IMG/VR virus record: IMGVR_UViG_3300009157_000018
Span: 27,462 to 91,461 of that record
Direction: 5' to 3' (one strand)
From: a virus
DNA: 64,000 bases
Shown: positions 7,473 to 37,971 of the stretch, one piece after another
How the letters are laid out: every line of letters begins with the position of its first letter
Numbering within the stretch: the stretch's first letter is position 1
Translations under genes and position numbers: made by a program
The notes under the pieces: generated by a model
Told to the model about the DNA's origin: nothing
What the model saw: the letters and a program-made list of their open reading frames with translations, nothing else
The model's database searches: none

Positions 7473-7546
7473 TGGAGCCGCAGCGAGGAATTGAACCCCG
7501 ATTCACCGCTTACAAGGCGGGTTTCTTGCCGTTAGAAGACGGCGGC
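7473..7546 (-). tRNA. tRNA-Thr(TGT)
   Basis: Cloverleaf, loop CT-TGT-AA, T loop TTCAATT, encoded CCA. Confidence 0.9.
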
Positions 7547-7559
7547 TCGCGTGTTAGAA

Positions 7560-7919
7560 CTAGGGCGCGGGCTCAGGCTCGGGCTCTGGCTCTGGCTCAG
7601 GTGCGGGAGCCGGGGAAACGGCTTCCGTGATCGCGTCAATGTCCGCGTCAGCCTCTTCGGCTGTGACAAGTAGAGCGTCGATCTGCTCCTGGGTGACGGC
7701 GCCTGCCATCAGTTCGTCAAGTTGTGCCTGTAGTTCGGCCAACTTTGCGCTTGCGTCGGCTGATGCAGCCATAACTGCATCAAATGCTGCCTGTGAGCTT
7801 GTCTTAAGGTCTTCTAGCTCTGCTGATAGTGCTGTAATATCTGCCATTATTGTCTCCGTGTTTTCAAGGATTTGTAACTGTAATCGGTTTTTCTGGGAAT
7901 TCCGTTTCCCACCCCACAA
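7560..7919 (-). CDS. Acidic coiled-coil protein with a C-terminal (PE)n tail; start uncertain
   Basis: ORF track; heptad pattern and PEPEPEPEPEP tail. Confidence 0.6.
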   Translation of the reverse strand: MWGGKRNSQKNRLQLQILENTETIMADITALSAELEDLKTSSQAAFDAVMAASADASAKLAELQAQLDELMAGAVTQEQIDALLVTAEEADADIDAITEAVSPAPAPEPEPEPEPEPAP

Positions 7920-8019: not shown

Positions 8020-8047
8020 AGTATACCACATACCTCCATCCTGTCAA
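8020..8047 (-). promoter_or_regulatory. Sigma70-type promoter
   Basis: TTGACA-16 nt-TATACT with upstream TG (extended -10). Confidence 0.65.
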
Positions 8048-8053
8048 TAGATT

Positions 8054-8128
8054 TGGAGGACCAGTTGGGGGTCGAACCCAAGTCGTCGGTTTACGAAACC
8101 GGCATCCTAGCCACTAGACGACTGATCC
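8054..8128 (-). tRNA. tRNA-Thr(CGT)
   Basis: Cloverleaf, loop TT-CGT-AA, encoded CCA. Confidence 0.9.
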
Positions 8129-8668
8129 CCTGATAATTTTTCGCACCTGAGGCCATGAGGAGGCCCTAGGAAGCCCGCTAAGGTCCGTAGTGAGGTTGTG
8201 CGCCCTAGCAAATAAAATTGCCTTCCTGTCGGATTCCAGGAACTCTAGGCAATTTTGAGGCTTGTCATCAACAAGCAATTCTGCGTCAGTAAAATCGATC
8301 TTCCGATCTTTAGGCCCGACGATGGTGACTCTCTGGAATTGAGGGCGCCATTTGCCGAGCCACTTCCAAGTGTTGTACTCGGCCCATTGGGGCTTGGAGG
8401 TAACGCATTCTAGATAATGACCTTCCCGCCGTAATCGATCTAAGGTTCCGATTGCTCCGTCTACGGCAGGGAAGGTATGCCATAACCATTCTCGTTCTCG
8501 TAGCCATGTCCACCAGTTCTGTCCAATGATAGGATCAAGGATAGGATGTAGGTCCCACTGATAGATATCTTCTTCGGAAAGAACTACACCGTACTCCTTC
8601 TTAACAGAGTCGCGGAGTCCCCCCACAAAATCTAGAACAGTATCGTCTAGATCGATTGCCAAATGCAT
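8114..8668 (-). CDS. HAD-family 5'(3')-deoxyribonucleotidase (NT5C-like)
   Basis: N-terminal DLDDT (DxDxT), VTS motif, LVDDKPQN; its stop lies inside tRNA-Thr(CGT). Confidence 0.85.
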   Translation of the reverse strand: MHLAIDLDDTVLDFVGGLRDSVKKEYGVVLSEEDIYQWDLHPILDPIIGQNWWTWLREREWLWHTFPAVDGAIGTLDRLRREGHYLECVTSKPQWAEYNTWKWLGKWRPQFQRVTIVGPKDRKIDFTDAELLVDDKPQNCLEFLESDRKAILFARAHNLTTDLSGLPRASSWPQVRKIIRGSVV

Positions 8669-8850
8669 TACTTCGACTTGATTTCGACTATTTCAACGGC
8701 TTCTGTAGGATTGAAGTCCCAGATCGAAACATCATCTAATCCAAGTCCTGTTCCATTTTTCTCAATCAATTCCTTGAGCACGAGGGCTTCAATGCCTCCG
8801 TGGACCGCGATCTCGTAAGAGATCGTAGCCTTGACAACGGAATCTACCAC
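8668..8850 (-). CDS. Hypothetical protein
   Basis: 60-aa ORF abutting both neighbours. Confidence 0.55.
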   Translation of the reverse strand: MVDSVVKATISYEIAVHGGIEALVLKELIEKNGTGLGLDDVSIWDFNPTEAVEIVEIKSK

Positions 8851-9216
8851 TTACTTTCCTTCCTCTTCATCGTGAAGAATCTTCGAAGCCACGAATTCCC
8901 CAGCCATGATATTGAACATCACGGCAGCCGCGTGGTCTTCGTCTGTTTCCCCCGTCGCCCATTGTATCAGATGCCGCAAAGCCGACGAGCGATAGCGTGC
9001 TAGTTCTTCTTCTCCTCTCGCCATCTCCCAATTGCGAGCGTCGTATTTCTCAGCTCCCCTGGTCATCAGGTCTGCAAATCGCGTTAGCATCTGCTCATGA
9101 TACGGAACGCCGAGCGGAAATAAGAGATCGAATCTGGCTTTCCCATCCTCGGTATCGCGTACCATTCCGCTCTCGTACTCGCTACGCTTGCCAGAATCCT
9201 TGGTAATCCTTGTCAT
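8851..9216 (-). CDS. dATP/dGTP diphosphohydrolase N-terminal domain (DUF5664-like) protein
   Basis: K.RFDLL, GAEKYDARNWE, SALRHL..W..GE.DEDH motifs; start placed at ATG 9216 after an SD-like sequence. Confidence 0.8.
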   Translation of the reverse strand: MTRITKDSGKRSEYESGMVRDTEDGKARFDLLFPLGVPYHEQMLTRFADLMTRGAEKYDARNWEMARGEEELARYRSSALRHLIQWATGETDEDHAAAVMFNIMAGEFVASKILHDEEEGK

Positions 9217-9379
9217 ACCTTCCCTTATCATCGTAGAACTGTGGTTGCTGGTAATCCTTGTGGGTGTGACGATCCTTGGTGTTGTTGGTTCTAGAGCGAG
9301 AAGCATCACAGCATTTAATCCCACCAGGACAAGAGGGGAACATATAAGTCTTGGGCTTATGCCTCTTGAAATTAGCCAT
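9182..9379 (-). CDS. Hypothetical protein
   Basis: SD AAAGGTGA then ATG 9379; the longer track ORF overlaps a tRNA. Confidence 0.45.
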   Translation of the reverse strand: MANFKRHKPKTYMFPSCPGGIKCCDASRSRTNNTKDRHTHKDYQQPQFYDDKGRYDKDYQGFWQA

Positions 9380-9396
9380 CAACTCACCTTTAGTAT

Positions 9397-9472
9397 TGGT
9401 ACCGCCCCAGAGAATCGAACTCTGCTGCATCTATATGTAACATAGAGGCCCCCACCAGAAGGCAAGGGCGGT
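9397..9472 (-). tRNA. tRNA-Val(TAC)
   Basis: Cloverleaf, loop GT-TAC-AT, CCA. Confidence 0.9.
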
Positions 9473-9474
9473 AT

Positions 9475-9548
9475 TGGAGCCGGAGCTGGGAGTCGAACCC
9501 AAACTGAATCCTTACCAAGGATTTAGTCTACCGTTAACTTACACCGAC
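9475..9548 (-). tRNA. tRNA-Thr(GGT)
   Basis: Cloverleaf, loop TT-GGT-AA, CCA. Confidence 0.9.
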
Positions 9549-9727
9549 TTGTTGTTTTCTTCTTCCCTCTTTAGAATACGAAGACAGGATTCGCACGACT
9601 TCTCGTCGGCAGGCAGTTCCGCTGCAGTCTTCGAATCCATATATCCCCACTTACCACAATATGCTTTCGGAAGACCAATGCGGCTCTGAAACCGCTCGAC
9701 ATGCCAACTCTTAATAAGGAACCACAT
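9539..9727 (-). CDS. Small putative Zn-binding protein (WH...YCG...CESC)
   Basis: 62-aa ORF; stop TAA is positions 8-10 of tRNA-Thr(GGT). Confidence 0.6.
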   Translation of the reverse strand: MWFLIKSWHVERFQSRIGLPKAYCGKWGYMDSKTAAELPADEKSCESCLRILKREEENNKSV

Positions 9728-9729
9728 CT

Positions 9730-9909
9730 TTATTGAATCCCTGACTTACAATTCTTAGCTGCCGCGTGGCTGTTCTGGAACGCTCGTTCCTCGGAGTCAC
9801 CATTCGCAATCGTCTTGTTGAAGACGCGCATGAATACTTGCTGACAACGAGTAGTGGTATATTCCTTTTTTACAGCCTCGGGAAGCTCCTCTGTCTTAGA
9901 ATATGGCAC
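9730..9909 (-). CDS. ChaB-family protein (59 aa, below the ORF-track cutoff)
   Basis: Hand translation MPYSKTEELPEAVKKEYTTTRCQQVFMRVFNKTIANGDSEERAFQNSHAAAKNCKSGIQ fits the ChaB pattern MPY....LP..VK...F...FN...EE.A...A.AA.K. Confidence 0.75.
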   Translation of the reverse strand: MPYSKTEELPEAVKKEYTTTRCQQVFMRVFNKTIANGDSEERAFQNSHAAAKNCKSGIQ

Positions 9910-10104
9910 TTACTTTACCTTCCTGAAAGAATCTTCATAATTCGATCTCCATTTCCGTACCTCGCTAGGGCTTGGAAGTCCTGGTATATGCACAATCTCG
10001 CCAAAAGGTTCAGCGTAAGGATCGTAGTCTTCCTCTTCGCGCTTGCGTTCCCAAGCAAGTAGTCTCAGAAGAAACCACCGACCTATGCCTTTTATATCGC
10101 GCAT
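9910..10104 (-). CDS. Hypothetical protein
   Basis: SD GGAGG then ATG 10104. Confidence 0.55.
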   Translation of the reverse strand: MRDIKGIGRWFLLRLLAWERKREEEDYDPYAEPFGEIVHIPGLPSPSEVRKWRSNYEDSFRKVK

Positions 10105-10114
10105 GTCCTGCCTC

Positions 10115-10456
10115 CTAGGGTATTTGGGTCTTTTTATTAGTGTAGCCTCTAGTGTGTGTTCTGATGCGGTGACAGTTGGAGCAGACCACATCGCACTTGA
10201 CTATCTCCAATTGTAGGCGCTCAATAGACATAGAGGAGGCTCTGACTGACCCTATCGCGAATTCCTTGTCGCCCCTATGGTCGAAGTCCATGACATATGG
10301 TGGGTAACTTTCCCCGCAGTCGGCACATGGCTTGCTTTTCGCTGCATCGATATAAGCTCTAGTGCGTGCCCGTGCGCGAAGGTTGGAGTCAATGTATTTC
10401 TCCTTGTTCGCCTCATAATGAGCACGATAAGATTCCTGTGATGCCCAACCGCTCAT
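10115..10456 (-). CDS. HNH endonuclease
   Basis: CADC...DFDH...KCDVVCSNCHRIRT. Confidence 0.85.
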   Translation of the reverse strand: MSGWASQESYRAHYEANKEKYIDSNLRARARTRAYIDAAKSKPCADCGESYPPYVMDFDHRGDKEFAIGSVRASSMSIERLQLEIVKCDVVCSNCHRIRTHTRGYTNKKTQIP

Positions 10457-10474
10457 GGTCGCCTTCTATAAAGT

Positions 10475-10551
10475 TGGTCTGGGAGGCTGGGATCGAACCA
10501 GCGACCTTCTGCTCCCAAAGCAGACGCGCTACCTGGCTGCGCTACACCCAG
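10475..10551 (-). tRNA. tRNA-Pro(TGG)
   Basis: Cloverleaf, loop TT-TGG-GA, CCA. Confidence 0.92.
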
Positions 10552-10559
10552 ACGCTAAT

Positions 10560-10631
10560 TGGAGAGAGGGGGCACGATCCCCTGACGAGGGGCTATCACC
10601 CTCGCTTGGTCCCAACCAACATGGCTCTCCA
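10560..10631 (-). ncRNA. Non-canonical tRNA-like cloverleaf RNA
   Basis: Acceptor TGGAGAG/CTCTCCA, D-like TTGGT/ACCAA, arm GCGAGGG/CCCTCGT with loop TGATAGC, T-like AGGGG/CCCCT with loop ATCGTGC. Confidence 0.6.
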
Positions 10632-10767
10632 TTGAAATCCCGGCTACACGGCATTACGCCTTACCACTGCCCCAAACGAAGGAGCACCCACCTTCCTTAC
10701 CGGGTGCGCGTAGCAGCGGCCTCACGGCTCACACTCCACGCTACCGTGGGAGTCACCCACGAATTAT

Positions 10768-10843
10768 TGGTGCTACCGGACGGGATCGAACCGCCGACGC
10801 TCTGCTCTTCAAGCAGACGCTCTACCTACTGAGCTACAGTAGC
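10768..10843 (-). tRNA. tRNA-Phe(GAA)
   Basis: Cloverleaf, loop TT-GAA-GA, CCA. Confidence 0.92.
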
Positions 10844-10845
10844 AC

Positions 10846-10929
10846 TGGTGGTACTCCAGGGATTCGAACCCCGATAGCCAAGACGACTGCTTTACACGCA
10901 GTTGATTTCACCCACTTACCATGAGTACC
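10846..10929 (-). tRNA. tRNA-Tyr(GTA)
   Basis: Long variable arm, loop GT-GTA-AA, CCA. Confidence 0.88.
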
Positions 10930-10931
10930 AT

Positions 10932-11003
10932 TGGCGCCGCCAGAAGGACTCGAACCCTCAATAAAAGCTTAGAACACTTCGACCCATCCAATGGGATGGC
11001 GGC
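10932..11003 (-). tRNA. tRNA-Arg(TCT), shortened D arm
   Basis: Acceptor GCCGCCA/TGGCGGC, loop GT-TCT-AA, canonical T arm, CCA. Confidence 0.75.
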
Positions 11004-11011
11004 GTATTTTG

Positions 11012-11164
11012 TTACGGAGTGAGTGCGCTCAGTGCTAGAGCAACCAGCACTAGCCCAACCCATCCTAGTTTGATGGTGCTAGTTCCCAACTTGAAATCGA
11101 TAGCCTCTAGTCCAAATAGGATTGCGGCTATGATATACATAATTAGATCAGGAGTAACGTCCAT
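11012..11164 (-). CDS. Small membrane protein (50 aa, two hydrophobic segments)
   Basis: Hand translation MDVTPDLIMYIIAAILFGLEAIDFKLGTSTIKLGWVGLVLVALALSALTP. Confidence 0.6.
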   Translation of the reverse strand: MDVTPDLIMYIIAAILFGLEAIDFKLGTSTIKLGWVGLVLVALALSALTP

Positions 11165-11236
11165 TTATACCCTCTTTGCGAAGAAGATGATCGCTAAGAT
11201 CACCAATATGATAATCAGAATTGTTACTACGTCCAT
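11165..11236 (-). CDS. 23-aa hydrophobic peptide
   Basis: SD GAGGTGA; MDVVTILIIILVILAIIFFAKRV; its stop abuts the next ATG. Confidence 0.55.
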   Translation of the reverse strand: MDVVTILIIILVILAIIFFAKRV

Positions 11237-11399
11237 TTTCTCACCTCTGTTGTGCCGGTAACGAGACTTCCGGCTCGGAACCTACCGCCAGAGCGATGCC
11301 GACGAGGGCCTTCCCGAGATGGCTTCTGGCTTATACCTCGGTACACATGACCCAACCGCTTACGGGGACCACGTGGTAGTCCTTGGGAGCGGGGTTAAT

Positions 11400-11487
11400 T
11401 GGCGGAAGGCCAAGGAATCGAACCTTGGCTGGTGTTACCCAGGCTACTGTTCAGCAAACAGACACATTACCGCTCTGTCAACCTTCC
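11400..11487 (-). tRNA. tRNA-Ser(GCT)
   Basis: Long variable arm, anticodon GCT, G73, CCA. Confidence 0.9.
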
Positions 11488-11489
11488 GT

Positions 11490-11565
11490 TGGTGAGTCCG
11501 GCAGGGCTCGAACCTGCATACGCGGAGTTTAAAAGACTCCCGTTCATCCGTTGAACTACGGACCC
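11490..11565 (-). tRNA. tRNA-Lys(TTT)
   Basis: Loop CT-TTT-AA, CCA. Confidence 0.92.
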
Positions 11566-11568
11566 ATT

Positions 11569-11642
11569 TGGAGGACTCTGCCAGATTCGAACTGGCGTAA
11601 GCGGGTTTGCAATCCGCCCCCTCGCCGCTCGGGCAAGAGTCC
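11569..11642 (-). tRNA. tRNA-Cys(GCA)
   Basis: Loop TT-GCA-AA, U73, CCA. Confidence 0.92.
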
Positions 11643-11781
11643 TTGTTAACCTCTGGCGACTGCGGTGACCACAAACACACCCTACTTACGCTGGGGCCTA
11701 CGATGATCGCAAGCGATCTTGGGCGCCTGGGCAGTCCGCCGATCAGACGCGCATGTGGTCTCTTCCTCAGAGGCTAATTAT

Positions 11782-11894
11782 TGGAAGAAAGGCTTACACA
11801 CCGCGCATTTATTTCTGATTCACGCGGCCCTTATCTAGTCCGGCTAAGCAGTACAGAAACACTGCTTTCGCCCCCCACTCCTGGGCCTTCCTTC
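11782..11894 (-). ncRNA. Candidate ~113-nt structured RNA ending in CCA
   Basis: 10-bp closing stem GAAGGAAGGC/GCCTTTCTTC, internal hairpins AAGCAGTG/TACTGCTT and CCGCGTG/TGCGCGG; no ORF. Confidence 0.5.
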
Positions 11895-11902
11895 GCATCT
11901 AT

Positions 11903-11978
11903 TGGTGGGCAGCATAGGGATCGAACCTATGACCTACTGTATGTCATACAGACGCTCTTACCGCTGAGCTAGCCGCCC
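11903..11978 (-). tRNA. tRNA-Val(GAC)
   Basis: Loop AT-GAC-AT, CCA. Confidence 0.9.
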
Positions 11979-12151
11979 GCTTGTTCTTTTGCTCGTTCTA
12001 ATATCGACTTGCGCTCTTCCTCAGGGTCTACTAAAACTACTCTGGGAGAAGGTGATAAAGGAACAACTTCTTCTTCCTTATCCTCCTTCGGTCGGTCCGG
12101 CATACGCTCCTCGGGTCGGAACTGCGTATAAGTTCGCTTTCGTTTAGCCAT
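11969..12151 (-). CDS. Hypothetical charged protein
   Basis: 60 aa, SD GGGGTGA; stop TAG is positions 8-10 of tRNA-Val(GAC). Confidence 0.55.
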   Translation of the reverse strand: MAKRKRTYTQFRPEERMPDRPKEDKEEEVVPLSPSPRVVLVDPEEERKSILERAKEQAGG

Positions 12152-12329
12152 GATTCACCCCATCGTCTTCGATAGTAATGTTGGATTCTTTGAAGGGGAC
12201 TGCTCCACCTTCATTCTCCCAATCGGATGCTGGCTGATCTTCTACTGATTCGTAGATGCGCCGCAATCGATCCGATTCGGTCCTGCCTCCAAAGGCAGGT
12301 TGGCGAGTAATTATTCCTATATCGTTCAT
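12144..12329 (-). CDS. Hypothetical protein (WENEGG motif)
   Basis: SD AAGGAG then ATG 12329. Confidence 0.55.
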   Translation of the reverse strand: MNDIGIITRQPAFGGRTESDRLRRIYESVEDQPASDWENEGGAVPFKESNITIEDDGVNHG

Positions 12330-12495
12330 ATTCTCCTTAGATCGTAGTTTCGCCATCTGTCCCTATATACTCCATCATCATCGGGGACTTGCATGGCCGA
12401 TCCGACCACCAAGTGCCAATCATTGATCGTAATGTGGAGTCGTATACCTTCAAGACCACAACTCCATCGTGTGCATAGATGTATTTTCATAGTTT

Positions 12496-12571
12496 TGGTA
12501 GCCCCCCTGAGATTCGAACTCAGACTGGAACGCTTTTGAGACGTTTGCCTCTGCCGTTGGGCTAGAGGGCC
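12496..12571 (-). tRNA. tRNA-Leu(CAA), short variable loop
   Basis: Loop CT-CAA-AA, A73, CCA. Confidence 0.88.
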
Positions 12572-12573
12572 AT

Positions 12574-12649
12574 TGGTACCCTCGGTCAGATTCGAACTGA
12601 CACTGGACCGGGCTTAAACCGGACGCCTCTGCCGTTGGGCTACGAGGGC
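12574..12649 (-). tRNA. tRNA-Leu(TAA), short variable loop
   Basis: Loop TT-TAA-GC, A73, CCA. Confidence 0.88.
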
Positions 12650-13881
12650 TCTCTTAGCCGGAACCCGGCCTGTACCTGTTCGGGTTCGGCACGAATAGCC
12701 GACCCCTTAGATTGATCAAACAACTCTGCTATTGTATGCGATCTTTTCTCAATTGTCAAGTCATGCTCGGCAGCCCATTGTGCGGACTCAGTTGCATTTA
12801 ACTCACTGAATCGGATGCTGGCTGAAATTCGACCAGGACGAGCCACCGCTGGATGGAATCTACCGATATCTTCATTGGTAGTAATCAGTACAAGGATGCG
12901 AAGCCCTTGACCAATCAATCCATCTACGAGGTTCAGTAGACGACTTAAACCCTGGCCTGATCGCTCTTTAGCATCTGCGCTTAAGAGCTCGCCTGTATCT
13001 TCGAAGATCAGGGTGCGCCAGCGTTTGTCTGGCTCACTCTCGCCCTCGTCATCATCAAGCGGAGAATATCTCTCACTACCGATGATAACATTCATCAGAT
13101 AGGATGCTTCTGCACCGAAGAATTTCTCAGGGTCAACGACATACTCGAAATCACACCAATCTCGCCATTCGTTAGCCAGTGCCCGAATTGCATAGGTTTT
13201 CCCGGTTCCTGGAGGGCCATACCACAAGAGCAATTGTCCTGTGACTAAAGATTCGGGCCGGAAATCCTTGGCCAACATCTTCGATAGACCTGTGTAGGTC
13301 TCATAAGAATAGTTGGGTGCGATTTCGTCCCATTTTGGAACTGCAATCTTCCGACGAATCAGATTCGGGCCGTTGGATGCCAGCGACCAGAAGTGCAGAT
13401 CAATGATGTGTTCGTCGCCTTCGGCTGTGATCGGCTTATACACATCATGTAGGCCGATCAGCCACTTCACACCTATGTCATAGTCATCTGTGTAACAAGT
13501 GAAGGTAGAAGCTCCGGCATCGCGAGATACAATGTCAATGATAATCTCGTCATTGATCCAAGTAAAACGCTCCCAGCGCTTGCTGCTATTCTTGAAAGTT
13601 TTGGGGTCCATGTAGCTGCGCCGATAAAACAACGGCACGCCCATGTCCGCAAGGTGAGACTCTTCTACGACTACATCCGTCTCCCAATTGGCAGACACAC
13701 AATAACGAAGACCTCGGGCCGCGATCTCGCGCATCGCGATATCGTGTCCCAGACTGTCATCGCTGGTTTCCAAGGCCAATCCAATTTGCTTCGCATCAGT
13801 CTCGACTAATACCCCTGTACTTGCCGGTAGACCAATTTCAGCCCTGGAGAAATCCTTGCCCTTGTCGTATGATCTTCCCAT
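12640..13881 (-). CDS. AAA+ ATPase (DUF5925-associated type)
   Basis: Walker A YGPPGTGKT, Walker B LIFED, LSRLLNLVDGL, ITTN, RPGR arginine finger; stop TAG is positions 8-10 of tRNA-Leu(TAA). Confidence 0.85.
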   Translation of the reverse strand: MGRSYDKGKDFSRAEIGLPASTGVLVETDAKQIGLALETSDDSLGHDIAMREIAARGLRYCVSANWETDVVVEESHLADMGVPLFYRRSYMDPKTFKNSSKRWERFTWINDEIIIDIVSRDAGASTFTCYTDDYDIGVKWLIGLHDVYKPITAEGDEHIIDLHFWSLASNGPNLIRRKIAVPKWDEIAPNYSYETYTGLSKMLAKDFRPESLVTGQLLLWYGPPGTGKTYAIRALANEWRDWCDFEYVVDPEKFFGAEASYLMNVIIGSERYSPLDDDEGESEPDKRWRTLIFEDTGELLSADAKERSGQGLSRLLNLVDGLIGQGLRILVLITTNEDIGRFHPAVARPGRISASIRFSELNATESAQWAAEHDLTIEKRSHTIAELFDQSKGSAIRAEPEQVQAGFRLREPS

Positions 13882-13898
13882 GTTCCTCCCGAAATATT

Positions 13899-13975
13899 TG
13901 GGGTGACCGCAGAGGCTCGAACTCTGTTACCTCGGTCCACAACCGAGTGCCTCAGCCGGTTTGGCTTCGGCCACC
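13899..13975 (-). tRNA. tRNA-His(GTG)
   Basis: Loop TT-GTG-GA, encoded G-1 opposite C73, CCA. Confidence 0.92.
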
Positions 13976-13980
13976 ATGGT

Positions 13981-14052
13981 TGGCGGGAACGGTAGGAATC
14001 GAACCCACTGCGTTCTGCTTTGGAGGCAGTCGCCTTACCTTAAGTCGAACCC
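13981..14052 (-). tRNA. tRNA-Trp(CCA), short D arm and two U-U acceptor mismatches
   Basis: Loop CT-CCA-AA, canonical T arm, G73, CCA. Confidence 0.75.
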
Positions 14053-14112
14053 GCGCTAATGGGAGTGCCAGGCCAAACGCTCAACTCGACCCCTGTTGCT
14101 CCCTTGTCGGGG

Positions 14113-14142
14113 ATTCTACTACACCCCGATAGCGCTTGTCAA
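14113..14142 (-). promoter_or_regulatory. Sigma70-type promoter with an inverted repeat around the -10
   Basis: TTGACA-18-TAGAAT; TCGGGG...CCCCGA brackets the -10. Confidence 0.6.
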
Positions 14143-14144
14143 GT

Positions 14145-14435
14145 TTATCCTTGAGGCTGTTCGCCTGAAGGCGGATCGCCCAGAGCAGCGCTTCCAGAAG
14201 AAGCCGCCTCAGCAACGAGGGCCTTGGTGGTCTTCGCTGAGAAGACGAGCTGACGGATAATTTCTGTAGCGATGGCAGCGGCAGCAAGGCCAACAGCCAC
14301 AACAAACTCAGACGAGAACTCTAGCCCTAACTGGCCAGCAATAAACAGCGTAGCAGCAGTAGCAGCGGCAGAAGAGTAAGCGACAATACGAGCAGCTTCT
14401 CGTTCTAGTAAACCTTTAATCCAATCTGGTAGCAT
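14145..14435 (-). CDS. Holin (putative)
   Basis: 96 aa, two hydrophobic helices, directly downstream of the endolysin. Confidence 0.65.
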   Translation of the reverse strand: MLPDWIKGLLEREAARIVAYSSAAATAATLFIAGQLGLEFSSEFVVAVGLAAAAIATEIIRQLVFSAKTTKALVAEAASSGSAALGDPPSGEQPQG

Positions 14436-14459
14436 ATCTAAATTCCTTACTATATAGTA

Positions 14460-15365
14460 TTATCCCAACGCGACCTTCGCGTTGTTAATCTTCTGGTTCT
14501 GCGCCGTGAGAATCACGGTCATGTCATCCAGTTGAGTCTTTAGAGGGGCAGTAGCAGCAGCAATCTCTGCGGCGCAATCCGATGGAGTAGAAACAGTCTC
14601 AGCAGAAATAAGAGGCGTTAGTGTAGAGATATGGAAATATCCGCGCTCTTGCTTGCTTCCTGTCCACAAAGCACCCGTATACCATGCGCTTGATCCATTG
14701 ATGTTGGCTCCACCGACTTGAAAATCTGGATAAAAGATAGTACCAGCCGGGAATTGAGCAAGAGCTGCGTTTGCAGTACTTGGATCACGCCGGAAGTTCG
14801 TGCCAGCATTTTTGGTTGATGCCTGCTTATTGATTAGCCGCTGAGGATTGCTTCCAAGTACCACTTCTGATGCTCCTGCCGTAAGAATGGTTTGATCTAA
14901 CAGGGGCCACAAATCCTTGGCCACACCATTAGGAAATTGACTAGTGTGCTGTTTACAATCTGCATGTAGATGTGGGCCACTGATTCCGTAACCAGTTGCA
15001 CCCAGGACACCAATCTGTTGCCCTTTAGACACGGTTGTATTCACAGCCACACTAAATGACTGAAGATGGGCGTATCCTGTAGACCAATACCCACCTGAGT
15101 CTAAGCGACCAGCATGTGTCACTCGCATGATCAGGGCTCCATGACCAACCTGGCCCGGTGTATTTTGAATATACCGACTGGTTACCTTACCAGAGGCCAT
15201 TGCATACACGGGAGCCCCCTGTCGTGCATTGCCAATGTCAAGAGCACATCCAACACCGGACCTTACATGCGCGGCACATCCACGAGTTACGACGAAATCA
15301 AGATTACCAGCTGGCCTAACCCAACCTTCTGGGTGGAGATAGCCAGGAACTGGAGTTGCAAACAT
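14460..15365 (-). CDS. Endolysin: M23 peptidase, SH3-like region and coiled-coil tail
   Basis: ALDI...G.PVYA...G.V, YAHL, V.KGQ.IG..G.TG...GPHLH. Confidence 0.85.
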   Translation of the reverse strand: MFATPVPGYLHPEGWVRPAGNLDFVVTRGCAAHVRSGVGCALDIGNARQGAPVYAMASGKVTSRYIQNTPGQVGHGALIMRVTHAGRLDSGGYWSTGYAHLQSFSVAVNTTVSKGQQIGVLGATGYGISGPHLHADCKQHTSQFPNGVAKDLWPLLDQTILTAGASEVVLGSNPQRLINKQASTKNAGTNFRRDPSTANAALAQFPAGTIFYPDFQVGGANINGSSAWYTGALWTGSKQERGYFHISTLTPLISAETVSTPSDCAAEIAAATAPLKTQLDDMTVILTAQNQKINNAKVALG

Positions 15366-15387
15366 ACCTTCTGTCCTTCCGGGCGCT

Positions 15388-15411
15388 AAAAAGCGCCCTT
15401 AGGAGGCGCTT
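15388..15411 (-). terminator. Intrinsic terminator upstream of the endolysin
   Basis: AAGCGCC-tcctaag-GGCGCTT-TTT. Confidence 0.6.
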
Positions 15412-15416
15412 AAGTT

Positions 15417-15499
15417 TGGTACTGACCGAGAGATTCGAACTCTCACCCCGAAGGACTTGTTCCTAAGACAAGCGCGTAAACCAATTCCGCCAGGCCAGC
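15417..15499 (-). tRNA. tRNA-Leu(TAG)
   Basis: Variable arm with CTTCGG, loop CT-TAG-GA, CCA. Confidence 0.92.
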
Positions 15500-15600
15500 A
15501 CACGATTAGTGCCGGTTACCGGGTCCGGCGCTGTTTCAGACGGGATACATTTTACAAGCCCCAAATTGGCTAACCGATTACCTCTCACAGCGGTAAGTAA

Positions 15601-15678
15601 TGGTGGAGGCGCGGAGAATCGAACTCCGATCTTTCGGGTGCAAACCGACTGTGTAGACGCCACTAGCACTACACCCCC
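15601..15678 (-). tRNA. tRNA-Ala(TGC)
   Basis: G3-U70, A73, loop TT-TGC-AC, CCA. Confidence 0.9.
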
Positions 15679-15686
15679 ACGACCAT

Positions 15687-15697
15687 ATTGTACCACA
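15687..15697 (-). promoter_or_regulatory. Extended -10 promoter TGTGGTACAAT
   Basis: 8 nt upstream of tRNA-Ala. Confidence 0.55.
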
Positions 15698-15701
15698 GTT
15701 A

Positions 15702-16187
15702 TTATGAAGACGCCAGACGAATGATGAGATTGATCGCCAGAGAACCGACCGTAGCCGCGATCCCGACGAGAAGACCGACCTTCCATTGGTTGCTTCGTAG
15801 ACGGTCGTTTTGGTCTTCACGATCTCTAGCCATCTGCTCCTTTGAAAGACGTTCGGTTTCAACCCGCTTGATTTCGGCAGTCTTCAGTTCTGCTAGCGTC
15901 ATAGAAATGGTCGCAATGTCAGCCTTCGTAGCAAAATTGCGCTCTCGGTCATTCATGGTCTCACGCCACTCATTGGCGTCAGCCTTGTTTTCTTTCGCTA
16001 GCAGGGCGGCAGTGTCGATCGCCGCCTGAGAGAATTGGTGTTCCCTAGCGTGAGCGGCTTCGTGTTGTAAATGTTCCCGTTCATGATTGGCCCAAATTAG
16101 GTCCAAACGGTCACGGAGGGCAACAAGTTCGCCATGAATGGTTGCATTTGTCGCCCGAGTTGAATTTTCAGTGTTGTCCTCAGGCAT
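15702..16187 (-). CDS. Coiled-coil protein with a C-terminal TM helix (possibly lysis-associated)
   Basis: 161 aa, single C-terminal TM; nearest CDS upstream of the endolysin. Confidence 0.6.
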   Translation of the reverse strand: MPEDNTENSTRATNATIHGELVALRDRLDLIWANHEREHLQHEAAHAREHQFSQAAIDTAALLAKENKADANEWRETMNDRERNFATKADIATISMTLAELKTAEIKRVETERLSKEQMARDREDQNDRLRSNQWKVGLLVGIAATVGSLAINLIIRLASS

Positions 16188-16225
16188 TACCCCTCCCCCT
16201 GTGCCACTAGCACATGGTATGCATG

Positions 16226-16444
16226 TTATACTTCAGGTTGATCGATAATTTCAGTTGCCTCTGGCATTTTCATGCCATCAGCATTGAAGTTCTTGGCTGC
16301 TTCCTTAGCAATAGCCTCGGCTGCTGGATCACGCATCGGCGTGAGCTTAGGAGGAAGAAGTAGTTCATCCTTCATAGCCTTAACGCGCTTCTCAGCCTCC
16401 TTGTCATCCTTGTATCTGCGACTATTACGCAAGTTCTTTAACAC
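16226..16444 (-). CDS. Hypothetical protein
   Basis: GTG start after tRNA-Asp; the track ORF wrongly extends through the tRNA. Confidence 0.55.
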   Translation of the reverse strand: MLKNLRNSRRYKDDKEAEKRVKAMKDELLLPPKLTPMRDPAAEAIAKEAAKNFNADGMKMPEATEIIDQPEV

Positions 16445-16456
16445 TCTACCCTCGTT

Positions 16457-16532
16457 TGGCGGCGCCCAAGAGACTCGAACTCTCTGACTTCTGGTTGACA
16501 ACCAGATACCGATACCCTTTGGCTTCGGCGCC
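16457..16532 (-). tRNA. tRNA-Asp(GTC)
   Basis: Loop TT-GTC-AA, G73, CCA. Confidence 0.88.
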
Positions 16533-16541
16533 ACGCTAATT

Positions 16542-16615
16542 TGGAGCGGCTACCCAGGATCGAACTGGGACTAACAGCTTGGAAGGCTGTTGTACTGCCG
16601 TTATACGACAGCCGC
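16542..16615 (-). tRNA. tRNA-Gly(TCC)
   Basis: Loop CT-TCC-AA, U73, CCA. Confidence 0.92.
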
Positions 16616-17253
16616 TAGTTCAATTGTTGATGCTGTCCTGACCGCCTACCCCATAGCCAACTACCGATCATCAACAGAAGCACAACACCTACTACGCTAA
16701 TCCCACCAGGAATTTCCGGTGTGGCTGTGTCCGTTAAGGGTCCAGGTAGAGATGGATACTCACCGCCGGTGCCAGGACCAGGTAGTGGAGGTGCAGGCGC
16801 TCCGGGTGAAACATCACACGGTCTACTGAAAAGGCTGACGAAGTATGTTCGTCCAGTAGAAGGCTGGAAATATGCAGCGGAACCGATTTCAGCCCAATTG
16901 CCAGTCATTACGGCAAGGTGAGACGGACTGCCGATCCATCCGATTACCGCCTGCGCCAAAGGATCAGCGTAACCCTTATTCCACGCAATGATCTCGCCCC
17001 ACGACCAACAACCTAACCGTTGGGTTAGATCGGTGTGTGCAAACTCTCCCGTCACTGTGATTTCTATTACTCGTTCTAGTGCAACTCTGGTTAGCAGTGC
17101 AGAGGTTGGTAGGTCCGATTCTCCTACCGACACACGATACGCATTAACGGCGTCATCGACTGGTGTGGCTGCGTAAACTGGAGTTGTAATCCCAAATACA
17201 AGTGCAAGAATGATAATAATTAACCTTCGCATCAGGTCCCCCCCCAACATCAT
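16615..17253 (-). CDS. Secreted CAP (SCP/PR-1) domain protein with Pro-rich linker and C-terminal membrane anchor
   Basis: Signal peptide; VNAYR, FAH, GEIIAW, W.GSPSHL motifs; C-terminal LTDTA + TM + RR. Confidence 0.8.
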   Translation of the reverse strand: MMLGGDLMRRLIIIILALVFGITTPVYAATPVDDAVNAYRVSVGESDLPTSALLTRVALERVIEITVTGEFAHTDLTQRLGCWSWGEIIAWNKGYADPLAQAVIGWIGSPSHLAVMTGNWAEIGSAAYFQPSTGRTYFVSLFSRPCDVSPGAPAPPLPGPGTGGEYPSLPGPLTDTATPEIPGGISVVGVVLLLMIGSWLWGRRSGQHQQLN

Positions 17254-17380: not shown

Positions 17381-17454
17381 TGGTAGCGACTGCGGGACTC
17401 GAACCCGCTTCTCCGACTTGAAAGGCCGGATGCTCAGCCCTATGCTCAGCCGCC
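17381..17454 (-). tRNA. tRNA-Glu(TTC)
   Basis: Loop CT-TTC-AA, weak D arm, CCA. Confidence 0.82.
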
Positions 17455-18113: not shown

Positions 18114-18198
18114 TGGTGGAGGCGCCGACGAGTTGCACATCGGGTCCGAAACCGTTCTCTTGCGAGGCTTACAGCTTCGTCGAACCTATCTCACCCCC
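18114..18198 (-). ncRNA. Mini-tmRNA: tRNA-like domain only, no tag reading frame
   Basis: GGGGGTG-AGATAGGTTCGAC-GAAGCTGT...ACGGTTTC-GGAC-CCGATG-TGCAACT-CGTCGG-CGCCTCC-ACCA. G3-U70, A73, stemless D loop ending TTCGAC, P2-like stem capped by a GCAA hairpin. Confidence 0.8.
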
Positions 18199-19765: not shown

Positions 19766-19873
19766 GCGTTTGTTAATTTTGACCCCGGTTACCTGACCAC
19801 CGAAGTGACCAACCAACCAATCCACCGACTCGCCGGGGGTCGTTCCAAGGCTGCACCAAGGAGGACAGTGCTA

Positions 19874-19902
19874 ACTGTAACACAGCTCTTTGGGCTTGTC
19901 AA
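19874..19902 (-). promoter_or_regulatory. Promoter at the head of the tRNA island
   Basis: CACTTGACA-17-TACAGT; the same motif recurs at 54964-54992 and 62310-62338. Confidence 0.7.
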
Positions 19903-19957
19903 GTGCGAATCGGCGCGAGGGACGCCCGGACTAAGCCGAGCGCCCCCCGCAGGCCAT

Positions 19958-21193
19958 CTAGACATGCTTAGTGATGTACCAAGTGAAGTTCTGCGAGTTG
20001 GTGAAGGTATATTGCTTCCCAACCTGAGCATCCACTGCTACATCTTTCACATCTCCTGTAATCGTCACACCAGACAACACATCGGTTCGAAGAACCTGGT
20101 GGGTGTCGGGATGCTTGAATTCCAACTTGATGGCAATGTCATTTCGGAATGCATCGACGGGGAAATCAGTATCAGTTGTAGCGGTGCTACCACCAATCAT
20201 GATCTTCTCTAGATCGAAGTCTTCCGCGAAGACAGTGAAGTTACCCGTTACATCGGCTGGAGTCTGACGCCATGATCCAACCTTTTGGCTACCCATTCCT
20301 TCTTCGCTCTGGGCGTTGAAGTTCATGGTTGCGTCAACGCTCTGCATACCTCTCACTTGCATGCCATTAGGGGCGTTTGCAGTGATGGTAACAGGGATAT
20401 GATAGTAACCACGAATAGCTGCAGGACTTACGGTGTCCTTGGCTTGGAACGGATCAGGAGTCGTGCCACCAGTACGCTGGTAAGACCACGCGAACTGAGT
20501 GCCGTTAGCGATCTGGGCAAGGATCGTCGCGTTGGTAATCGAAACAACCGTACCGCTACATACAAAGTCGTCATTTTCCAGAAGATAAGTGGTAGAACCT
20601 GATGGCTGAGCCATCTGGGCGCTAATCAAGAAGTTTCCAGAAGCCTGCCCACGCGTTAGCGCAATAGCAGTATTCGACAATGTATAGACGGCCTGGCTAG
20701 CACCTGATGCTGTCTGATTATCAACTTGAACAAATCGCTCAAATGCGGTCTTGTTGTCCGCAGTCAGATCGAAGGTCTCCGTTGCCGATGCATTGGTAGC
20801 CGCTTGAATACGGTAACTACCGACTGTTGCCTGCCGAACGTAAACGCTCTGCAACCATGCAGTACGAGCAGTGTTTCTCTGCATCATTAGAACGTCAACA
20901 TCAGCGTTGCCAAGCATATCCTGAACAGTCTTATTTGACCAGGTATGCGAAGGATCGAAGTTCGCAAACATCGAAATCAATCGAGCATTGACTAAGTTGG
21001 CGTCAATAGGTAGCGTGACATCAGGAGAATCGAAGCTGATACCTACAACGGTTTCGTTTCCGATTTCCTTTTCCACGGTATTTGGCCGCTGAGCATTCGT
21101 GTTAGCAGACTGTACACGGCGAGCCTGTGAACTAGCTGCTGGAGTGACAATAAACGGCGCTAAGTTTGCTGGGTCTTGTGATAGACGGCCCAT
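19958..21193 (-). CDS. Major tail (tube) protein
   Basis: 411 aa, Thr/Ala/Val-rich and beta-type; follows the putative tail terminator. Confidence 0.75.
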   Translation of the reverse strand: MGRLSQDPANLAPFIVTPAASSQARRVQSANTNAQRPNTVEKEIGNETVVGISFDSPDVTLPIDANLVNARLISMFANFDPSHTWSNKTVQDMLGNADVDVLMMQRNTARTAWLQSVYVRQATVGSYRIQAATNASATETFDLTADNKTAFERFVQVDNQTASGASQAVYTLSNTAIALTRGQASGNFLISAQMAQPSGSTTYLLENDDFVCSGTVVSITNATILAQIANGTQFAWSYQRTGGTTPDPFQAKDTVSPAAIRGYYHIPVTITANAPNGMQVRGMQSVDATMNFNAQSEEGMGSQKVGSWRQTPADVTGNFTVFAEDFDLEKIMIGGSTATTDTDFPVDAFRNDIAIKLEFKHPDTHQVLRTDVLSGVTITGDVKDVAVDAQVGKQYTFTNSQNFTWYITKHV

Positions 21194-36350: not shown

Positions 36351-37971
36351 CGTCGTACTCCTCTATCCACATATCAGGCTCTTCTTGGGCGACTGTTGCC
36401 TCAGCCTGGCTCAGCAACATGGCTCCAAAAGTTTCGAATGAAGACAGATCGTGGTTGTAATGCGGATTCCCGTCGTGGCTGTAATCCGTTTCATAGATGC
36501 GATATTTCCCCGTCTTGTCTTCGTGATCGATAGTCGAACCGAGCTGCTTCCATAACTCTTCTTGACCAACGACCCGGATCGATCCGTTATACAGATTGGG
36601 GATCAGGATTTGCGGGATGGAAACTTGGCGCAGAGGCATTTCGACGGGGACAAGCTGGCGGTGTTCAGATGAATACGGTTCTTTGGTTAGGCGCTCCACA
36701 AACTCTTCGTCTGTTTCCAAGCGATCACTGAATTTGACCTTTTCGGACACATTAGCCCAAACCACCTGGTGACCGAAATTCTCGATAGCAGAGGAGACAG
36801 CTTGTCCACCTTGTCCAGTAGTGTCAAAACCGATCAGTGGGTTAATGGCGTACATGCGTTTGAGCTCGTTAGCCACAAAATGGAAGACCTCAGCCTGCTG
36901 GTCGGCCTGCATCCCATACAGAAGGAAGCGCATGTACTGACGCCAGCACTTCTCCCGAACATCGAAGAAATGAATGTATGCCGTTGTTGGCGAAGCCGTC
37001 TGCCCATAGTCCGCTGCGATGTAGATTCGATCAGCTTTCGGCATGTCCTCTCGGAAAGCAAACTGCATCGGCAAGTCGGCTTGGTCATATGTACGCGCAT
37101 CAATCGAAACGCTGTGATAATACGACGGGACTCGGCCAACTTCGCCCTCGACACGTGGCAGGTCATGGGTGATTCGCTCTAAATCGAAGGTCATGCGGGC
37201 GTCCGCACCCCACAAGCCCAGCACTTTTTGCTGGTACATATTGCTGGTTTCGCCGCCATAAGCTCGTTTCAACGACTCTAGGAACTCCGGCGTCATACGC
37301 GGGTCCTCTAATCGAGTCATGGGACCACCGGCAAAACCTTCATTGGGATCGGTGTCAATGCGATATGCCCATGAAGTTCGCACTCCATTAGGCACGCCTG
37401 AGGCAAAGACGGGGAGCCTAGCGTTAATCATGCCGTAGAACTCACCAATCGCACTATCATCTAGCAACTGACCCTCATCAAGCCACGCACAGATATTGGG
37501 GTGGACGGTGTTGAAGCCCTGACCGTCTTTACCTTGGATACGCCCTTTGATAATTGCGTTATTGGCCAAGCGAATTTCGAAGTGTTTACGGTCGATAGCC
37601 CGTTCTCCACCCTGTAACCAGAACTTCATCAGATGATTACGCTGAAATAACGATACCATCTTCTCAAAGATAGGCTGTAAGTTGGGGTCGGCCCTGGCAC
37701 CAACCAAGGCTACGCCGTCCTCCGCACCGTCATATTGCATTACCAAGGAGTTGACTTCATCCATGACGGTAATGGTCTTACCTAAGTCACGAGCCTGGAA
37801 TCGTTTCTTATGTAAATCTTCTCGGTTCACTTCATGAACTTGTTTAGGCCACCACAAGGTAAACTTCTCTCTCTCCGAGCTACGAACAAACTCGGAAAAA
37901 ATAGCAGGCGTTGATACTAAGCGGTATAACGCCCAATCCTCGTCGGTTAATGGTTCCTTGATATCGACCAT
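36340..37971 (-). CDS. terL: Terminase large subunit
   Basis: Walker A ARDLGKT, Walker B WLDE, coupling motif SGVP, RNase H-like IAADYG. Confidence 0.85.
   Translation of the reverse strand: MVDIKEPLTDEDWALYRLVSTPAIFSEFVRSSEREKFTLWWPKQVHEVNREDLHKKRFQARDLGKTITVMDEVNSLVMQYDGAEDGVALVGARADPNLQPIFEKMVSLFQRNHLMKFWLQGGERAIDRKHFEIRLANNAIIKGRIQGKDGQGFNTVHPNICAWLDEGQLLDDSAIGEFYGMINARLPVFASGVPNGVRTSWAYRIDTDPNEGFAGGPMTRLEDPRMTPEFLESLKRAYGGETSNMYQQKVLGLWGADARMTFDLERITHDLPRVEGEVGRVPSYYHSVSIDARTYDQADLPMQFAFREDMPKADRIYIAADYGQTASPTTAYIHFFDVREKCWRQYMRFLLYGMQADQQAEVFHFVANELKRMYAINPLIGFDTTGQGGQAVSSAIENFGHQVVWANVSEKVKFSDRLETDEEFVERLTKEPYSSEHRQLVPVEMPLRQVSIPQILIPNLYNGSIRVVGQEELWKQLGSTIDHEDKTGKYRIYETDYSHDGNPHYNHDLSSFETFGAMLLSQAEATVAQEEPDMWIEEYDVGW

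Follow-up and report, generated by a model that had tools for sequence, protein, structure and literature searches.

Why should a gene borrow its stop codon from the transfer RNA (tRNA) gene that follows it? The question is raised by a tRNA island of a phage represented by IMG/VR record IMGVR_UViG_3300009157_000018, a linear record of 91,461 bp with a GC content of 51% and a CheckV completeness of 73%. We analyzed bases 27462-91461 of this record, a stretch of 64,000 nucleotides (nt) called the window below. Five minus-strand genes of the island have a stop codon that lies within the 5' end of the next tRNA gene or touches it. According to a preliminary description of this DNA, maturation of the tRNAs would leave mRNAs lacking a stop codon, and tRNA processing might thus act as an off-switch or timer for the encoded proteins, or their stability might depend on a block or change of trans-translation by a minimal transfer-messenger RNA (tmRNA) encoded in the same island. 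The junctions proved to be real. We conclude, however, that the shared stops are probably no dedicated device: they would be tolerated as a by-product of the extreme packing of genes and the turnover of cassettes.

Genes ending in the next tRNA gene

The island covers ~7.4-19.8 kb of the window (12 kb) and contains 29 tRNAs called by ARAGORN and two tRNA-like genes found only by Rfam. All of its tRNAs are on the minus strand, and CCA is encoded in every ARAGORN-called tRNA. The 5' ends of the five overlapped tRNAs (8128, 9548, 11978, 12649, and 16615, minus strand) were set by ARAGORN and by Rfam with Infernal, the two agreeing in each case. All five tRNAs score 49-60.6 bits, compared with a Rfam gathering score of 29 (Table 1), and they are not degraded, as their mean score is 53.9 bits versus 51.1 for the remaining tRNAs. 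At the end of the NT5C-type gene, GGA TCA GTC GTC TAG is nt 1-15 of tRNA-Thr(CGU), and the last four codons (G-S-V-V) are tRNA-derived. Similarly, the last three residues of the AAA ATPase (E-P-S) and its TAG are encoded by nt 1-10 of tRNA-Leu(UAA). The two tRNA finders, the table of open reading frames (ORFs), and the junction sequences agree that five genes take their stop from the downstream tRNA, as had been described.

Three more genes of the island precede a tRNA and have their own stop codon, with gaps of 23, 8, and 13 nt. The stop is hence shared at five of the eight gene-to-tRNA junctions and separate at three, and the earlier count of five of about eight holds. Another candidate for the eighth junction, an 80-aa ORF at 19789-20031 located 23 nt before tRNA-Ser(UGA) and included in the mechanical count described below, was rejected, as it is out of frame over a 411-aa gene and failed the codon filter; the 50-aa hydrophobic ORF listed in Table 1 is more credible in this position.

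Two of the five genes are certainly real. The product of the NT5C-type gene matches Pfam PF06941 (1.3e-17), with residues 3-179 aligned to positions 4-174 of the 180-position model, that is, to at most five residues from the end. The AAA ATPase matches Pfam AAA (4.9e-10) and phrog_33861 (1.2e-52). The match of the CAP-like protein to Pfam CAP is sub-threshold (E 0.0046), and the protein has 299 homologues at E<=0.001 in a library of 1.8 billion proteins. In their alignment (A3), an H/GE/W/SP-H core is conserved, and an LPxTA-like motif at the C-terminus precedes a hydrophobic stretch and a basic tail. The gene likely starts at 17232, which would give a protein of 205 aa. We also observed a signal peptide and a proline-rich linker in the CAP-like protein and its homologues.

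The evidence for the two small genes is of a different kind. The 62-aa gene starts 2 nt past the stop of gene 9730-9909. P0122, the one homologue of its product (46% identity; E 1.9e-4 database-wide), is ~4 aa shorter at the C-terminus, and the codon score of the gene, 5.5 per 60 codons, is ambiguous. The codon score of the 60-aa ORF is typical of the genome (11.2 bits per 60 codons versus 13.5+-5.6 for true genes), and its start overlaps the stop of the preceding gene 12144-12356 by 8 nt (ATGGCTAA). We found no homologue of this ORF beyond the record's own 44-aa gene call with the identical C-terminus, and a tblastn search of GenBank phages with both small ORFs and the CAP-like protein yielded no match. 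The 60-aa ORF thus appears to be the weakest of the five, as its support comes from codon usage and the coupled start. Judged by their sequences, at least four of the five genes are solid, with homology support in four.

These observations make it very improbable that the ORFs are not genes, or that the tRNA 5' ends have been mis-set, and hence that no stop is truly shared. Such an artefact would be compatible with the missing homologue of the 60-aa ORF and with the codon score of the 62-aa one; moreover, chance 60-codon open frames entering a tRNA are not rare, and several spurious ones were seen. On the other hand, both tRNA finders concur on the five 5' ends; strong matches to families or homologues extend to the C-termini of the NT5C-type protein, the AAA ATPase, and the CAP-like protein; a homologue was found for the 62-aa ORF; and both small ORFs are parts of tightly coupled gene arrays. 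Even in the worst case, three or four of the five junctions would stand. The five genes have no common functional theme, comprising a nucleotidase, an ATPase, a secreted CAP-like protein, and two small unknowns.

Table 1. Coordinates of the shared-stop junctions, the control junctions, and other features (window positions except for the last row).
Feature	Position	Strand	Details
NT5C-type 5'(3')-deoxyribonucleotidase gene, 184 aa	8114..8668	-	TAG = nt 13-15 of tRNA-Thr(CGU)
tRNA-Thr(CGU)	8054..8128	-	ARAGORN; Rfam 51.5 bits; T13-A14-G15 = NT5C stop
Small gene, 62 aa, CxxC-type motif	9539..9727	-	TAA = nt 8-10 of tRNA-Thr(GGU)
tRNA-Thr(GGU)	9475..9548	-	ARAGORN; Rfam 51.4 bits; T8-A9-A10 = common stop
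Small ORF, 60 aa	11969..12151	-	TAG = nt 8-10 of tRNA-Val(GAC)
tRNA-Val(GAC)	11903..11978	-	ARAGORN; Rfam 60.6 bits; T8-A9-G10 = common stop
DUF5925/AAA+ ATPase gene, 413 aa	12640..13881	-	TAG = nt 8-10 of tRNA-Leu(UAA)
tRNA-Leu(UAA)	12574..12649	-	ARAGORN; Rfam 49 bits; T8-A9-G10 = common stop
CAP/SCP-like secreted protein gene, 212 aa	16615..17253	-	TAG spans -2..+1; its G = G1 of tRNA-Gly(UCC)
tRNA-Gly(UCC)	16542..16615	-	ARAGORN; Rfam 57.1 bits; G1 completes upstream TAG
Control junction, 161-aa gene	15702-16187	-	Own TAA 23 nt before tRNA-Ala(UGC) 15601-15678; codon score 48.5
Control junction, 50-aa hydrophobic ORF	11012-11164	-	Own TAA 8 nt before tRNA-Arg(UCU) 10932-11003
Control junction, gene	7560-7919	-	Own TAG 13 nt before tRNA-Thr(UGU) 7473-7546
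HNH endonuclease gene	10115..10456	-	phrog_3106 2.2e-29; within island
tmRNA look-alike, 85 nt, tRNA-like domain only	18114..18198	-	G3:U70, A73, CCA (alanine identity marks)
tRNA-like gene	16460-16532	-	Rfam only, not ARAGORN; 43 bits
tRNA-like gene	17384-17454	-	Rfam only, not ARAGORN; 43.3 bits
tRNA-like gene	13984-14052	-	Rfam only, not ARAGORN; 28.2 bits
Sigma-70-like promoter motif TTGACA-17-TACAAT	12731..12759	-	Near-consensus, perfect TTGACA; 11/12 matches; inside AAA gene 3' end, ~80 nt upstream of tRNA-Leu
Sigma-70-like promoter motif	14113-14142	-	Near-consensus, perfect TTGACA
Sigma-70-like promoter motif	8020-8047	-	Near-consensus, perfect TTGACA
Sigma-70-like promoter motif	19874-19902	-	Near-consensus, perfect TTGACA
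Stand-alone GGQ protein gene, 119 aa, outside window	G000:C1:3670-4029 (= L033:1483-1842)	+	PF00472 69.7 bits; phrog_3122 3e-38

Frequency and conservation of shared stops

Is sharing at five of eight junctions more than expected? In the same genome, 32 of the 58 junctions between coding sequences (CDSs) overlap (55%), mostly by -1, -4, -8, or -11 nt, and the CDS-to-tRNA rate of 5/8 does not differ from this (Fisher p = 1.0). The CDS-to-CDS rate refers to close same-strand junctions and was obtained with a simple gene caller using codon usage and Shine-Dalgarno sequences. A random-frame null gave a similar result. In two of the three frames, the conserved U8-A9-R10 and Y13-A14-R15 of tRNAs give TAG or TAA, and for the eight junction tRNAs a stop starting at or before nt 13 is reached in 9 of 24 tRNA-by-frame combinations, yielding P(>=5 of 8) = 0.14; for all 31 tRNAs, the same is true of 24 of 93 combinations. 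The overlap frequency therefore matches that of random frames, which speaks against a selected layout, and the five-of-eight rate is not above chance expectation.

We also counted junctions in six comparator phage regions, taking mechanically all ORFs of >=60 aa that end between -60 and +30 of a same-strand tRNA. Overlapping junctions were found in all of them: 4/15 and 1/4 in the IMG/VR contigs G001 (locus L041) and G002 (L043), 2/5 both in contig G003 (L042) and in mycobacteriophage Myrna, 1/8 in Xanthomonas phage XacN1, and 3/6 in coliphage T5, where four are annotated. The pooled rate is 13/43 (30%) versus 5/8 in the window (Fisher p = 0.11); restricting the count to ORFs of >=100 aa yields 10/30 and 3/5, respectively (p = 0.34). 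In all regions taken together, the commonest site of a shared stop is nt 8 (9/18).

Several of the comparator genes that share a stop have domain support. They include a VanY endolysin-like gene with a peptidoglycan-binding domain, in which the G of the TAG is G1 of tRNA-Thr; a double-zinc-ribbon gene in L041, whose TAG is nt 8-10 of tRNA-Ala; and HNH endonuclease genes overlapping tRNAs in G003 and in Myrna. In the RefSeq record of T5 (NC_005859), hegC, hegD, T5.057, and T5.069 are annotated as ending 6-24 nt inside tRNA genes, and the XacN1 annotation has one such overlap (ORF095). The Myrna gene is an unannotated ORF encoding a 101-aa HNH endonuclease (NC_011273, 93819-94124; L044:3819-4124; phrog_3106 9.5e-24). 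Its TAA is at nt 13-15 of tRNA-Gly (MYRNA_157), and the overlap with the tRNA is probably the reason for its omission from the annotation.

Conservation could be assessed for the AAA ATPase, from distant homologues; searches for the other four genes gave no close relatives. In alignment A1, the AAA homologues extend 3-6 aa beyond an invariant GF; in the window protein this distance is 6 aa, the last three residues being tRNA-encoded. The nearest homologue, P0002, is 52% identical. In the readable loci, which come from the distant homologues available, each homologue has its own stop. This includes the homologue in G001 (L041), which is also directly upstream of a tRNA, although a different one (Gly-GCC), and has its own TAG at -9..-7. 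The adjacency of the AAA gene and a tRNA thus recurs, while the shared stop does not, a second observation that goes against the regulatory proposal.

Searches for relatives of the phage gave little else. In a megablast search of GenBank phages with the island, the sole match was a tRNA-Pro, and no close relative was found. Viral contigs searched with the AAA protein, the NT5C-type protein, the CAP-like alignment, and the major capsid protein yielded a single 6.8-kb fragment, whose capsid gene is 83% identical and in which the island is absent. A metagenome scan for relatives yielded short or distant loci only, and a scan of genome contigs with the capsid protein found nothing.

Packing, regulation, and ribosome rescue

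The layout itself is already known: it is annotated in T5 and has been discussed for bacteria (PMC4131195), and the locus described here adds density. Hudson, Lau and Williams (2014; PMC4131195) predicted that t(m)RNA maturation over the 3' end of an upstream CDS leaves a non-stop mRNA, with Carsonella smpB-ssrA as the lead example, and the physical premise of the preliminary description is sound. Of the 115,660 valid t(m)RNA genes that they collected from 2031 bacterial genome projects, 250 (0.2%) are overlapped in the same orientation by an upstream CDS; phage tRNA islands were outside that survey (PMC4131195). The junctions described here belong to this class, having a valid tRNA, a supported upstream CDS, and a stop in the tRNA. 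By contrast with the bacterial rate of ~0.2%, overlaps affect 5 of the 31 tRNA genes of the phage, or 2 of 31 if only Pfam-positive proteins are counted. T5 is similar in that co-oriented genes are interleaved with tRNAs and stable RNAs, stops lie inside the next tRNA, HNH genes are present, and the other gaps are very short. Unlike in the phage studied here, where three of the five stops are at nt 8-10 and genes of other types are involved, the T5 overlaps are deeper (nt 4-24) and mostly concern endonuclease genes.

How could such an arrangement be tolerated? Gene ends overlap the next feature at about half of the close junctions, and the phage handles the 5' end of a tRNA just like the start of a gene. 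When a gene is deprived of its stop, or placed beside a tRNA by recombination, it gains just 0-4 junk residues, because U8-A9-R10 and Y13-A14-R15 provide stops in two frames. The island is co-oriented, and the overlap leaves no terminator space between gene and tRNA; no terminator-like sites were found between gene and tRNA at the eight junctions. Genes and tRNAs would be transcribed together, and the 5' strand of the tRNA should stay unpaired on the nascent transcript until the 3' acceptor strand is made ~65 nt later, so that ribosomes could terminate at the shared stop. Termination would then be normal on the unprocessed transcript, the tRNA being excised afterwards by ribonuclease P (RNase P). 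Run-off would be limited to ribosomes that the cut catches on the message, and these could be cleared by host trans-translation or by a phage protein with a GGQ motif, described below. As sharing a stop would add little cost, selection would not remove shared stops. They may have originated by deletion-biased compaction and by turnover of cassettes by homing endonucleases. The latter is suggested by the HNH gene in the island, a likely agent of cassette turnover, and by the precedent of T4 SegB, whose cuts in tRNA genes drive the co-conversion of the tRNA region (PMC2330249).

The E. coli secG-leuU pair is similar in having a CDS followed by a tRNA on the same strand with no terminator between them. 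In this pair, the RNase P cut falls at nt 1 of the tRNA and leaves 14 nt past the secG stop; the co-transcript has a lifetime of <30 s, and the freed secG mRNA is degraded in <30 s by a 3' exonucleolytic route needing PNPase (polynucleotide phosphorylase) and PAP I (poly(A) polymerase I) (PMC2241853). The two differ in that secG terminates at a stop of its own, 14 nt upstream of leuU, whereas in the phage own stops are found only at the three control junctions. Since secG mRNA is lost despite its own stop, any "switch" stems from the downstream tRNA and not from stop sharing. By the same token, a downstream tRNA would already limit the life of the upstream phage message, with 3' exonucleases passing an own stop as well.

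In mitochondrial tRNA punctuation, coding regions abut tRNAs whose excision sets the mRNA 3' end, and incomplete stops (T or TA) are completed by polyadenylation. In the phage, too, coding regions are directly against tRNAs, and one gene of the five, the CAP-like gene, would keep UA after the RNase P cut. However, all five phage stops are complete in the DNA, they are inside the tRNA, and some genes only are affected, so the phage junctions do not belong to this class. In principle, the UA of the cut CAP-like message could be completed to UAA by A-addition, an idea that draws on the action of PAP I on the cut secG mRNA in E. coli (PMC2241853).

Several points weigh against tolerated packing as the explanation. 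The genome carries a tRNA-like-domain-only tmRNA look-alike and a stand-alone GGQ protein, parts suited to non-stop ribosomes. Sharing at five of eight junctions is the top of the observed range, the comparators having 30% when pooled; the samples are small, and treating the rate of the comparators as true gives P = 0.06. There may hence be a modest real enrichment of shared stops. Close relatives of the phage were not found, limiting the evidence on conservation to distant AAA homologues. Finally, our account of co-transcription in the phage, of where its RNA is cut, and of how much message loses its stop is inferred throughout.

A regulatory use of non-stop mRNA has a precedent in E. coli arfA, where an RNase III cut at a dedicated hairpin removes the stop, and the truncated rescue factor is the active form. 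If the shared stops were likewise selected for, tRNA maturation would yield non-stop mRNAs, host tmRNA-SmpB would tag and destroy their products, so that expression is limited or timed, and termination in the 5' strand of the tRNA might in turn delay its maturation. We consider an off-switch or timer of this kind quite unlikely. It is true that the junction geometry is real, that the RNase P cut is at nt 1 and tmRNA acts on non-stop messages (PMC4131195), and that 5/8 is nominally above the 30% of the comparators. Still, the frequency matches both the gene-to-gene overlap in this genome and the expectation for random frames, the AAA homologues have their own stops, as do three neighbouring genes of the same island, and the five genes are functionally unrelated. 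T5 has the same layout, with no known role. In addition, the upstream mRNA of secG-leuU is lost after the RNase P cut wherever the stop lies (PMC2241853), so that sharing the stop would add little switching power. The timer is left unsupported by the match to the nulls and by the AAA homologues, and the caveat made along with it, that compaction using U8-A9-R10 could produce such overlaps, offers the better explanation. A strictly arfA-like arrangement can be ruled out. Both systems would have endonucleolytic processing that removes the stop and ties the fate of the product to trans-translation, but the phage has no ArfA-like protein, the affected genes are unrelated to rescue, and the site is not conserved in the AAA homologues, which have their own stops. 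We found no match in the genome to the ArfA (PF03889, E<=1) and SmpB families, and we rejected the possibility that the small ORFs are ArfA-like.

The phage does encode two RNA and protein parts that could act on stalled ribosomes. The minimal tmRNA reported in the island corresponds to an 85-nt tmRNA look-alike consisting of the tRNA-like domain only (Table 1). Its fold comprises an acceptor stem of 7 bp, a long P2-like helix that ends in a short hairpin, and a T-arm, and its 5' segment strongly resembles the tmRNA 5' end; the Rfam tmRNA model does not match it at E<=5. A tRNA-like-domain-only tmRNA is on record for mycobacteriophage DS6A, and a molecule of this type strongly inhibits tmRNA (PMC4131195). 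The second part is a 119-aa stand-alone GGQ protein encoded outside the window. Its phrog_3122 match is labelled "RF-1 domain peptide chain release factor", and it aligns best to release-factor domain 3 (prfB 223-325), while the ArfB model covers only residues 8-41.

Similar combinations were observed elsewhere. The 148-kb contig G003 (IMG/VR 3300015608_001197), with 38 tRNAs, has a full-length tmRNA (99.8 bits) inside its island and an RF-1-domain ORF (57.6 bits) just downstream (G003:C1:59700-60064 and 68527-68712; L055, L052). Hence a tRNA island, a tmRNA, and a GGQ protein occur together in this contig as well. In the tRNA region of XacN1 (AP018399; W02), a 106-nt sub-threshold tmRNA match at 37188-37293 (33 bits, model ends 1-374) may be another short tmRNA-like RNA.

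Together, the two parts could form a co-adapted rescue module, in which the tRNA-like RNA titrates SmpB and the GGQ protein frees untagged, near-full-length peptides, removing the cost of a shared stop. Besides the presence of both parts and the DS6A precedent of tmRNA inhibition (PMC4131195), this would fit the products being short by 0-4 C-terminal residues only, and G003 likewise joins a tRNA island, a full tmRNA, and an RF-1-domain gene. Nevertheless, we find such a module unlikely. T5 has overlaps at 3/6 junctions (four annotated) with no RF-1-domain gene, which we searched for and found absent both from T5 and from XacN1; G003, having tmRNA and GGQ genes, shows just 2/5 overlaps. The preliminary description had proposed to look for co-occurrence of the overlaps with a minimal tmRNA; no link of shared stops with rescue genes was seen among the six comparators. 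Moreover, the GGQ protein has no match to an ArfB-type tail, which makes its action on non-stop 70S ribosomes merely putative, and the genome has no ArfA or SmpB gene. Phage tRNA, tmRNA, and GGQ modules could plausibly serve otherwise, for example, against host defences that cleave tRNA or mRNA. It is quite unlikely that the phage encodes stop-codon-independent termination, with SmpB soaked up and peptides released from stop-less messages by the GGQ protein; if true, this would explain the tolerance of shared stops at five of the eight junctions.

Other features of the phage and significance of the locus

Besides the island, the phage encodes terminase, a major head protein, ribonucleotide reductase, thymidylate synthase, and DNA methyltransferase. 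The thymidylate synthase ORF (503 aa, window 39301-40812, minus strand) has an HNH endonuclease-like segment at residues ~236-327, flanked by parts matching the synthase. This segment may correspond to an intein or to the insertion of an endonuclease domain. The C-terminus of the CAP-like protein resembles a sortase-type cell-wall sorting signal, which hints at a Gram-positive, perhaps actinobacterial, host. Such a host would fit the occurrence of AAA homologues in Solirubrobacterales and mycobacteriophages.

Among the tRNA-like genes seen by Rfam and not by ARAGORN, the one at 16460-16532 has no proper CCA end. The T5 annotation contains comparable "tRNA-like stable RNAs of unknown function" amid its tRNAs. 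One of the four promoter motifs with a perfect TTGACA directly precedes the first tRNA of the island. As the promoter motifs total 14 versus 12.8 in shuffles, there is no excess, and the embedded promoters are leads only.

The locus is no evidence for a new regulatory system. Rather, it is a clear and dense case of an arrangement seen very rarely in bacteria, and in the seven phage tRNA regions including the window, about one third of gene-to-tRNA junctions are affected. Positions nt 8-10 and nt 13-15 are favoured because conserved tRNA bases act as free stops in two frames. For annotation, this means that phage genes running a few bases into a tRNA should not be discarded, as exemplified by the HNH gene of Myrna.

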